From positions 57,546 through 121,545 of the forward strand of contig DDFI01000001.1 of the NCBI GenBank assembly GCA_002337095.1: a DNA stretch of 64,000 bases, read 5' to 3'. The notes under the pieces were generated by a model that worked only from the letters and a program-made list of their open reading frames with translations, did no database searches and had not been told where the DNA came from. Every line of letters starts with the position of its first letter. Within the stretch, counting starts at the first letter, position 1. The DNA comes from Candidatus Saccharibacteria bacterium UBA1932. GTDB lineage: Bacteria; Patescibacteriota; Saccharimonadia; Saccharimonadales; Saccharimonadaceae. The position numbers were made by a program, and so were the translations under genes. This document shows positions 60,801-63,800 of this stretch, piece after piece.

Positions 60801-63800
60801 CTTGCATCGTAAATAGTGTCCTGGCCGTCACCAAGCTTGAATGCATACGTATCATCACCGCTACCGCCTGTAATGTAGTCATTGCCCCGACCTCCCTGCA
60901 AGAAATCATTGCCCGTCGACCCCCACAACGAGTCACTGGCGTCACCACCAATTAGCTGATCACCCTGAATACTCGCTGACAAATTGCTACCCGCTGCGCC
61001 TGCATACAGAATGTTCTTTTGGTCGTCGTACCCGGACAAGTATGACCGGCCCTTGTCATACCCGTGTTGCACGCGCGCTTTTTCGAGTATTGTATCAGCG
61101 TTCCAGATTGTGCCATCCGTAAATGTAATATGTTCAATTTTGTTGGCATCTTGGCGCTCCCACGTATAATCGTTATGGAAATAGTCACGAATTGTTATCT
61201 TGTCGCTACCATTTACTGTCAGCACCAAGTCTGAACCACGCGAGTCAGTGCGGCCCACCGTGATCATGTCAGCGGTGATGCCCTTACCAAATATCAGCTT
61301 GTCCGCACCATCGCTATCATATATCGTGTCGCTGCCATCACCTAGATGGTACATATACACATCATCGCCCGTCCCACCATACAAGTAATCGTCACCGGCA
61401 CCACCGTCTAGATAGTCATTCCCCGCGGCACCGTTGAGCCCATCATTACCGGCATCACCATACAGAACAGAACCGCCTGCATGAGCATACAAATTATCGC
61501 CGTCGTCGCCACCCGCGACCGTTTGACCAGCAACTTGCGCGGTAATAGAGTCGTAGGTTGCAGTGCCCTGCAAAACCCCTACACCGACGACGTCAATCGC
61601 CCGCGCCAACTCGCTAGACTGAAGGGCGTATTGCTGGCGGAATGCGCTCCAGCCATCTAATTTTTGCAAGTCGTAGCCCTTCATGACGCGCGCAAATTCG
61701 CCGAGCAACGCCACGCCCGCCGCGTGATCGGTGACGAGTTTGTCGTCGATCGTTGTCGTAACTTTTGAGAAGTCAAGCGTAATGCTGCCGCTCTCATTAG
61801 TATTGTAGCCAATTGCATTAACTACGTCTTTTAGCACTGTTTTGCTGACCAATGCTGCGTACATTCGGTCGCTTAGTTCGGCGTATGCCTGCTTTAACAT
61901 CGGTGCTGCGTTGTTGTTGGGTGAACTGCCATTTGTGCCCGTGAAGTTAGTTCCCATAAATTTCTCGAGCACTGCAAGCTGGCGTGCATCAATCAATCCA
62001 CCGCGACTCGTAGGGTCAATCGTATCACTACTCGTCCAGCGGTAAAGGATTTGCGCCATCAACGCATCGCGTGTCGCCACATCTGGTGCATCGACAAATT
62101 GCTGCACCAGTGTCTGCAGCGTGCCACTTACATCCTGAGCCATTGCAACGCGCAGCGAGCTAACATTTCCTGCACCGGCCAGATCGGGCAAAAACGCAAT
62201 TTCAACAGGAATATTCATACCCTCATGGCTGATATCTCGCGAATCGCTAGCATTACGGCCGAGCAAATATTCACCGGCCGCACCCTGCGTACCATTGCTC
62301 CACGTAAAGCTGCCCAGCCGCTGCTGGATATTGTTCATCACATCCGTTGCCTGTGTGACAACCGAGCCGACATTGATCGAGGTGATGCCGATAGATGTCA
62401 GGTCGGCAAGCTCATCCGCGCCCGAGACGCCATCGCTGTTTGCATCACGCCATATGCGCAACTTACTAAATACTTGGTCATGCGCGTCGATCCTTCCGTC
62501 ATGGTTGAGGTCAAAATCTGCCAGCGCTGCGAAGCCGCTTGATGCAACGGTGCCGTCGGCGAGGACTGTTCGATCACCAAATAACTCTTTGCCGCTGGTG
62601 ATCTTGCCGTTGCCGTCACGGTCAAGTACCAGCAGACCATCACCCTTGCCGACCCAGGCGGTGCGTTCGGCGTAGCCATTGGCATCAACGTCGAAATACA
62701 TCGTAGAGGTAGACAGGTTCGTCGTCTGGATACCGTTGCCGTCGAGGTCGAGGATGAGGGGGTCGACGCGGACGGCGGTGGTAGCAGAGCTAAATTTTTT
62801 ATCAATGCCCAGAAGTGATTCAAGGGTAACTTGACGTCCAAAGATATCCTTGCTACCTATGAGGTCAGATAATAACGAAAGCAGATTAATCGTGAACTCA
62901 CCAGTATCACGCTGAACTGTCGCAACCATTTTATCGAGATCACTACCTATTGCAAAGCATGCGCCACCAAGACTATCCCCCAAAAAAACAATACCGGTAC
63001 CTAGGCCTTTACTTGCAGCAGTAAAAGTATTTATATAACTATCTGCAACAATATACAAACCACTACCGAGCGCTTGACCGATATAGTTTGACGGGGGACC
63101 CAATGTATTGATGATAGCTGTCGCGCTTTGTACGATCTGCGTGCCGACTACAACATCGGCTGACGGTCCATGCACTTCTTCATTCAGTATAGTTTTTCCG
63201 TCCTTATCCTTATGCGTCATAGCCGATGAGCCATGTGATCCCCATATCCATTCATCTAGCGATTTGCCGAGTACGCTGTTACTGAATATATCTGATAGTC
63301 TGAATGAGCCTATAAGTCCATTCTCGTGAATTTCACTATTGGAGTCTCTGAGGTACCTAGTCTCTCCCATCCTTGTACCATAGTTTCCCACGCCATCGTT
63401 TTCATTGACATAATTTATGATTTGCCCACTAAACATCTCTGGTTTTAGCATCGGCAACAAGTTTGAGATTCCAACCGCGTTGAATGTCGTAGCATCACCT
63501 CCAGTCTCACACGACAGAAACTGCGCCAGCCCACCACCGAGCGAGTGGCCTGTAAAAGTTACGCCACTCGAGCGCACATAGCTTGCAAGACTTTCGTTAG
63601 TGACGAGTGATTGGCCGCTTTCCTCCGTCAACACACTTTGGACGAATTTGTATGCGTCGATAAACTGTCGCGGTATGCCATCCTTGGCAAGATTAGGCAT
63701 AGTAATCTGGGCGTCGGTGACTTTGTCTTCGAGCGTATCTGGCTCCGTCCCGCGGAAAGCAAAAACTATCTTACCATCAGGAGATTTCAGGGCAACGCCA

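Follow-up and report, generated by a model that had tools for sequence, protein, structure and literature searches.

The window analysed here, a 64,000-nt stretch of the Saccharibacteria contig DDFI01000001.1, ends within the gene for a large RTX protein, which occupies 57863..64000 on the minus strand. The open reading frame (ORF) as read in the window, 57863..63997, encodes 2044 residues, opens 3 nt short of the window end and runs off it. Because the corresponding protein from another assembly, P0216, begins MQPLEY-MCLSQ..., we place the true start, MQPLEY, six codons (18 nt) past the window end; the first 521 residues of P0216 are identical to the window protein. Pfam finds a Lipase_3 domain, 10 RTX nonapeptide stretches (PF00353, 1.4e-63) and six HCBP_related domains (PF06594). 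From the N-terminus, all on the minus strand, the protein comprises a lipase core (residues 1–280, 63158..63997), a linker (residues 281–411, 62765..63157), a self-processing module (SPM; residues 412–589, 62230..62764) that opens with the predicted scissile bond Asp412-Pro413 (62759..62764), a conserved region following the SPM (residues 590–807, 61577..62229), and RTX nonapeptide and HCBP_related blocks with a C-terminal tail (57866..61576, from Pfam and NCBIfam).

From sequence comparison, structure prediction and analogy, we consider it probable that the product of this gene is a clip-and-link RTX protein of the FrpC/ApxIVA class from Saccharibacteria, consisting of a lipase-like head, an SPM, a spacer, RTX/HCBP beta-roll blocks and a C-terminal signal, and it is from these likenesses that we infer its function. 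The linker is Gly-rich and moderately hydrophobic with long predicted helices, has a predicted local distance difference test score (pLDDT) below 50 for residues 300–411 in the AlphaFold2 model, and ends in FSSATTA, which an alignment shows to be kept in the orthologues L010 and L013. The region that follows the SPM is kept in P0002, P0005, L010 and L013 and contains the motifs LPDLxGAGNVSSLRxAMA, IDPTSRGG and LAVLEKFMG. The RTX/HCBP part contains internal DNA repeats of ~510-564 nt, and the C-terminal tail is presumed to be the type I secretion signal.

The initial annotation had proposed an FrpC-type SPM in this protein, and sequence, predicted fold and functional residues all bear this out. 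The peptide on which the proposal rested is in frame in the ORF, with Asp412 encoded by GAC at 62764-62762 and Pro413 by CCC at 62761-62759 (coding strand), and the range 62230-62764 maps onto FrpC 414–591, with Asp412-Pro413 aligned to FrpC D414-P415. This is one of just two D-P dipeptides in the whole protein. A phmmer search of residues 390–632 against all PDB sequences returned 6SJW (E=9e-36) and 6SJX (E=3e-35), aligned over chain residues 1–176, and beyond these just weak EF-hand proteins at E>0.09. Identity to the FrpC SPM is 44.5% over 173 residues, and a family hidden Markov model places the domain at residues 411–583, the single SPM copy in the window. Local Pfam and NCBIfam scans of the window protein gave no SPM match because the family, PF26745 ("SPM"), is newer than the local copy; it was the PDB sequence search that settled the identity, and the source database assigns PF26745 to P0216 and close relatives.

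The residues implicated in FrpC self-processing, whose roles were assigned by Kuban et al. 2020 (PMC7078468), are retained in the window protein apart from D579->E and L580->Y. The Trp pair W451/W519 of FrpC corresponds to W448/W516. The Ca2+ ligands of all three EF-hand-like loops are intact (D459/D461/N463/G464/E471 in loop 1, D496/N498/D500/D507 in loop 2 and D518/N520/D522/G523/E529 in loop 3), and the fourth Ca2+ site, D419/D421/D423/G424 with D456 in FrpC, is kept as D417/D419/N421/G422/D453. In the narrow port and the transient fifth Ca2+ site (FrpC L475, G477, D478, G491 and D579-L582), L472, G474, D475, G488, L578 and L579 are kept. Because only the two named residues differ, we expect the Asp-Pro bond to break on Ca2+ binding as in FrpC; Ca2+-dependent autocleavage at Asp412-Pro413 and subsequent Asp-Lys linking are accordingly predictions from the alignment. 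In vitro, cleavage and linking persist in more distant SPMs, with as little as 60% identity to FrpC (PMC12538545).

The predicted structure agrees with this assignment. An AlphaFold2 model of residues 405–590, built on an alignment of 18 homologues, has a mean pLDDT of 94.3 and shows the unique SPM fold, defined by two perpendicular beta-sheets with paired N- and C-terminal strands. A Foldseek search of the model against the PDB matched only 6SJW and 6SJX (E ~2e-18, TM 0.79-0.82), the next match standing at E=0.4. Residues 412–589 are thus confirmed as a full-length homologue of the FrpC SPM.

The head of the protein is a class-3 lipase with the alpha/beta-hydrolase fold, a GxSxG elbow and a catalytic Asp, and lipolytic activity is predicted for it. 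The N-terminal lipase named in the initial annotation is recovered by Pfam (Lipase_3, 5.7e-8), by the family PF26363 "Phospholipase-like", which is assigned to P0216, by an invariant motif and by the AlphaFold2 fold, with pLDDT >90 for residues 1–220. The nucleophile elbow GHSLGG carries Ser152 (63542-63544); among 25-27 relatives, columns G150-G155 are invariant and Asp201 (63395-63397) is conserved in at least 90%. Foldseek matches the head to the Rhizomucor and Malassezia lipases (4TGL, 5GW8) and to a type VI secretion system (T6SS) Tle effector of E. cloacae (9CYS), whose elbow also matches by sequence (GHSLGGGLA). PF26363 relatives carry XVIPCD domains, which mark type IV secretion system (T4SS) effectors. 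Elsewhere in the window, two further genes encode candidate lipid-active proteins, one of 993 residues with a GDSL-lipase domain (23743-26724, minus strand) and one of 368 residues that is PLD-like (39883-40989, plus strand).

Directly downstream of the RTX gene and on the same strand lie the genes for an HlyB-type ABC exporter with a degenerate C39-like domain (55548..57740, minus; Pfam C39, ABC_membrane and ABC_tran) and an HlyD-type membrane-fusion protein (54230..55561, minus; Pfam HlyD_3, HlyD_D23 and Biotin_lipoyl_2). By phmmer, the exporter matches E. coli HlyB (7SGR) at E=1.6e-215 (720 bits), compared with 1e-99 for the bacteriocin exporter PCAT1. Its GLYCL motif presumably places a Tyr at the C39 catalytic-Cys position, as judged by reading the N-terminal sequence against the HlyB N-terminus rather than in a computed alignment. 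The close similarity of the exporter to a proteobacterial transporter, in a phylum regarded as having no outer membrane and with no TolC among the scanned neighbours, suggests that the HlyB/HlyD pair was acquired horizontally and provides a two-component export route. By analogy, we propose that the RTX protein is exported by this type I secretion system (T1SS) from the monoderm cell of a bacterium belonging to the candidate phyla radiation (CPR). The order RTX-ABC-HlyD-PAP2-RmuC-PheS/T recurs on eight independent contigs. We note that the RTX/T1SS end of the window (56001-64000) has a guanine-plus-cytosine (GC) content of 0.50-0.51, somewhat below the 0.52-0.57 found elsewhere in the window, and a stronger negative GC skew.

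Small membrane-anchored proteins accompany the gene. Just upstream, beyond the window end, a 261-residue ORF (L090:1611-2396) is the immediate neighbour, and a 221-residue ORF (L090:4163-4828) follows an orphan ORF; two tandem ORFs of ~240 residues each lie upstream of the orthologues L010 (L010:2982-3713 and 4092-4814) and L013 (L013:2886-3584 and 3948-4688). These six proteins of 220-260 residues, each with one N-terminal transmembrane helix and a conserved core, align as one family, which always adjoins the Saccharibacteria lipase-SPM-RTX genes (window gene, L010 and L013). Pfam, PADLOC and PDB searches of them gave no match. They are probably cognate immunity proteins or FrpD-like partners, to judge by analogy; the immunity reading is suggested by their position next to lipase genes, as in Tle/Tli pairs. 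Between ~0.8 and 2.3 kb beyond the window end (L090:131-1591) there is also a 486-residue paralogue of the lipase (Lipase_3 / Phospholipase-like / DUF6792) that carries neither SPM nor RTX repeats.

The same neighbours speak for an adhesion device on the FrpC/FrpD model, in which the clipped head would be stapled on the host surface, a membrane partner would tether the epibiont, and the lipase fold would be secondary. The conserved membrane-anchored proteins immediately upstream of the gene, in the orthologues as well, echo the placement of frpD upstream of frpC (PMC5233953, PMC7078468). The parallel to FrpD is one of placement, and the invariance of GHSLGG and near-invariance of Asp201 across relatives point to selection for catalysis; we regard this explanation as improbable.

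The initial annotation had attributed the DNA to a CPR bacterium, which agrees with the window's GatB relatives (67-81% identity), all organism-named ones being Candidatus Saccharimonas, Saccharibacteria or Saccharimonadales, and with the nearest SPM loci. A proteobacterial origin, at first suspected from a GC content of ~54% and the HlyB-like T1SS, is rejected on both these grounds. In a scan of 185,579 species genomes for the module, the best four SPM loci among the matches listed were Saccharibacteria metagenome-assembled genomes (MAGs) at 61-62% identity; at least 574 of the 599 candidate SPM stretches of that scan were confirmed. These four other MAGs share the lipase-SPM-RTX architecture, and all four orthologues keep D-P along with GEYLL. 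Two of them, L010 (1015 residues) and L013 (1557 residues), combine Lipase_3, SPM and RTX in a single ORF within long contigs, with lipase/SPM junctions FSSATVAARVDP and FNSATAAPPVRVDP; the window junction FSSATTA-VRVDPLILD is collinear with the orthologue junctions FSSATVAARVDPLILD and FNSATAAPPVRVDPLIFD. The window sequence itself occurs in wastewater, activated-sludge and bioreactor metagenome runs from 2013-2023.

Beyond Saccharibacteria, an SPM profile search of 1.84 billion representative proteins returned 30,557 at E<=1e-3 and 14,216 at E<=1e-30. Among the matches listed in the genome scan are Proteobacteria, Thermodesulfobacteriota, Nitrospirae, Cyanobacteria, Acidobacteria, Verrucomicrobia, Chloroflexota and Babeliaceae, as well as monoderm Firmicutes (Filifactoraceae, Peptostreptococcaceae, Lachnospiraceae and Oscillospiraceae). 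The SPM thus occurs outside Gram-negative bacteria too, although statements in the literature on the module say otherwise. Cargo domains in the relatives include M23 and NlpC/P60 peptidases and lipases, and many giant proteins hold 2-4 SPM copies, often close to the C-terminus. Of 92 domains from 80 genomes (loci L010-L089), 53 have D, 27 have S and 7 have C immediately before the conserved Pro; the S-P and C-P variants might cleave by an N->O or N->S acyl shift, or fail to cleave. Full-text literature searches found no publication that reports, for Saccharibacteria or Patescibacteria, either an SPM or an RTX/T1SS protein, and as far as these searches reach, the view that the module is undescribed for CPR epibionts stands. 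Its presence in CPR is real, but it surprises less than first thought, because Pfam curates the SPM as a family whose members number in the tens of thousands and are spread over many phyla, monoderms included. What is already known is the SPM mechanism and the curated domain (PF26745); what is new is the monoderm CPR host, a cargo that can be recognised as a lipase and is accompanied by immunity-like genes, and the polymorphism of that cargo by way of the repeat.

Taken as a clip-and-link protein, the molecule would remain unfolded in the low-Ca2+ cytoplasm and leave the cell with its C-terminus ahead, through the HlyB-type ABC transporter and the HlyD-type adaptor. A TolC partner would presumably not be needed, because Saccharibacteria are regarded as lacking an outer membrane. 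Outside the cell, Ca2+ would fold the RTX blocks and the SPM, and the folded SPM would strain and break Asp412-Pro413; cleavage at this stage, after export, is to be expected because the SPM sits between the lipase head and the RTX blocks, with HlyB/HlyD adjoining. A lipase fragment of ~418 residues would leave with a C-terminal Asp anhydride, to be either hydrolysed, giving free enzyme, or bound to Lys residues of proteins on the host or the cell's own surface. More speculatively, the released lipase might act on host membrane lipids, causing envelope damage or supplying lipids. The small membrane-anchored neighbours probably serve as immunity or partner proteins. Lipid synthesis is absent from Patescibacteria, and hosts have been proposed as targets of phospholipases (PMC11665869).

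The fate of the anhydride bears on an alternative scheme, clipping without linking, in which the SPM merely frees a lipase toxin from its RTX carrier, the anhydride is hydrolysed and stapling has no biological role. Immunity-like neighbours, the resemblance of the head to T6SS Tle effectors and the XVIPCD-bearing homologues all fit such a diffusible antibacterial effector, and hydrolysis competes with ligation in vitro (PMC12538545). On the other hand, the chemistry necessarily yields an anhydride, and linkage of FrpC to cell-surface proteins has been observed (PMC7078468). Both outcomes fit the evidence at this locus; we hold clipping alone to be possible, if rather unlikely.

Comparison with known systems places the protein closest to FrpC/FrpA of Neisseria meningitidis and ApxIVA of Actinobacillus pleuropneumoniae, which likewise have ~410 residues of N-terminal cargo, an Asp-Pro bond, a 177-residue SPM, RTX/HCBP blocks and type I secretion; with FrpC, the SPM shares its fold, Ca2+ sites, Trp pair and most port residues in addition to the sequence identity given above. 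In contrast to these, the host here is a monoderm CPR epibiont where theirs are Gram-negative pathogens, the cargo can be recognised as a lipase where FrpC 1-414 is without known homologue, E and Y stand at D579/L580, and hlyB and hlyD lie directly downstream with no TolC seen among the scanned neighbours. The Family I.3 T1SS lipases (the Pseudomonas fluorescens / Serratia LipA type) also combine a lipase with C-terminal RTX repeats and type I export, but they belong to another lipase family, lack an SPM and stay attached to the RTX domain. The RTX protein FtxA of the monoderm, Gram-positive Filifactor alocis has a possible hydrolase motif and a region resembling the SPM, 39% identical to 6SJX (PMC7692872); its N-terminus, however, has no recognised domain and its GXSXXG lies outside a nucleophile elbow, as opposed to the clear class-3 lipase fold here. 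A further parallel is with contact-dependent antibacterial lipase effectors, the T6SS Tle effectors with Tli immunity (PDB 7UBZ/9CYS) and the XVIPCD-bearing X-Tfe lipases: the head has its fold and the GHSLGGGLA elbow in common with the E. cloacae Tle, and PF26363 relatives with XVIPCD and small membrane-anchored proteins placed like immunity genes extend the parallel. Delivery here would differ from theirs, by T1SS/RTX with self-cleavage in place of T6SS or T4SS, and the immunity role of the neighbours is putative.

Several observations weigh against the clip-and-link reading. The candidate catalytic His of the head, H266 (in an HGxSxM motif in the orthologues), lies in a low-confidence part of the model, with a pLDDT of ~50-70. 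A TolC gene did not appear among the neighbours covered by the Pfam scan; since Saccharibacteria are regarded as having no outer membrane, the feature may be irrelevant to them. Wastewater "RNA-Seq" runs contain only scattered low-depth fragments of the gene (57808-63920: lipase, repeat and RTX parts), which fit weak transcription or DNA carry-over and may be DNA.

The two changed port positions belong with these points: FrpC D579 is E576 and L580 is Y577 in the window protein, and D579 is a ligand of the transient fifth Ca2+. They could mean that the module is inactive, a folded Ca2+-binding spacer that no longer cleaves, the more so as the many S-P and C-P variants in the family show that Asp-Pro chemistry is not required of all members. 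The GEYLL motif at the D579 position is, however, common to the window protein and its Saccharibacteria orthologues, in all four of which it accompanies D-P. Moreover, neither D478 nor D579 serves as proton donor in FrpC (Kuban et al., PMC7078468), and a Glu could plausibly still bind Ca2+. We consider loss of cleavage very unlikely.

Two last points of this kind arise from the DNA. The lipase-to-SPM join spans an exact 332-bp repeat (62443..62774; residues 409–519, including the D-P bond), which is 100% identical to L001 over precisely that span, and another assembly, L090, joins the lipase to a truncated tail and not to RTX. Copies of the repeat lie at 62443-62774 in the window, at L001:10123-10454 and at L090:3638-3969, and between L001 and the window the flanks are unrelated on both sides. 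The repeat covers the first 110 residues of the SPM; the second copy, in L001, falls in an orphan ORF of 191-225 residues with half an SPM. In Logan unitigs from eight runs, the repeat forms a separate node, ~2x as deep as the adjoining ones, from which two arms leave on either side: on one side lipase (L) or an unrelated sequence, "alt-up" (A), and on the other the rest of SPM plus RTX (R) or a short tail (T), which ends in a stop (RIWRD-ENSNG...ILEV, stop). The window joins L to R, L001 joins A to T, and the JGI contig L090, which encodes P0216, joins L to T. Across seven runs the arm depths co-vary L with T and A with R. In run X9 they are 7.1 for L, 8.6 for T, 16 for A and 14.4 for R, so that in that run the non-lipase A arm must be joined to no fewer than half of the RTX copies, again to the disadvantage of our reading.

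These data raise the question of an assembly chimera, the real genes being a 564-residue lipase-repeat-tail protein with a truncated, dead SPM and an alt-repeat-RTX protein with an SPM after <=75 residues, from which a short peptide would be clipped. L090/P0216 does carry lipase-repeat-tail, the arm depths co-vary in the corresponding pairs, and short-read unitigs cannot phase the repeat: Logan contigs are unitigs that break at it. A metagenome scan for the repeat yielded one contig only. Low-depth unitigs cross it in either combination (A-rep-T in X15, L-rep-T in X20) and are uninformative for phasing because they run through the repeat in whichever direction was sampled.

The far ends of the arms bear on these arrangements. 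X9 shows T and L joined directly at their far ends, head to tail, via one AATAAATA. In the other runs, each of these two ends continues through AATAAATA, followed by GAGTTAACTAGTCTTGAACC, a perfect inverted repeat of 20 bp, into multi-copy sequence. This is a multi-copy element resembling an insertion sequence (IS), with 20-bp terminal inverted repeats and an 8-bp target duplication, seen outside the window at L090:78-105 and 4820-4847 and at L091:100-135; it sits between the 221-residue gene and the 486-residue lipase paralogue in most runs, and X9 shows the empty site. At its far end, A borders on what looks from its sequence like a tRNA gene. Given single-copy arms, the data allow one linear order only: tRNA - A - repeat - T - [221-aa gene] - (IS) - [486-aa lipase paralogue] - [261-aa gene] - L - repeat - R - hlyB - hlyD. 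It is exactly that of the window plus L001, with the joins of both, and loss (X9) or amplification (X5) of the loop between the direct repeats then accounts for the co-variation of L with T. Furthermore, the lipase/SPM and SPM/RTX junctions are collinear with the orthologues, and the alt-up and tail arms are not. A chimera is for these reasons unlikely, and L090 would reflect either a path through the graph cycle or an amplified junction that is real; L-repeat-T may also exist on a free circle. A shufflon-like inversion at the repeat was ruled out, as it predicts equal arm depths, which are not seen.

We therefore find that the junction data favour the window's join, and that in much of the population lipase-SPM-RTX very probably exists as one molecule. 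Beside it there is clearly a deletion variant without the lipase. The loop between the copies, ~4.7 kb long and, to judge from arm depths, deleted in about half of the X9 population and over-represented in X5, holds two lipase genes and two immunity-like genes, plus the IS-like insertion in most samples. Recombination between the 332-bp copies would give either a lipase-less RTX protein, as in about half the cells of one bioreactor sample, or extra copies of the loop, an on/off switch for the cargo or a cassette exchange that would be analogous to the N-terminal polymorphism of meningococcal frpA/frpC. That the 5' part of the SPM also serves recombination, as a handle to gain, lose or amplify N-terminal cargo, and that together with the conserved membrane-anchored partner the system may let the epibiont covalently mark its hosts and then bind them or feed on them, is a speculation to which we give little weight.

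How CPR epibionts attach to their hosts and obtain the lipids they cannot make is an open question (PMC11665869). If our reading is true, the locus would offer a type-I-exported lipase that is freed extracellularly by Ca2+-triggered self-cleavage and possibly fixed covalently to host surface proteins. Other Saccharibacteria genomes carry orthologues, and genetic work on the phylum has lately become feasible. For protein engineering of the NeissLock type, the window adds a divergent, compact SPM, drawn from a family that is very large (~30,000 clusters) and diverse in architecture, with 2-4 copies in giant proteins and with S-P and C-P variants.

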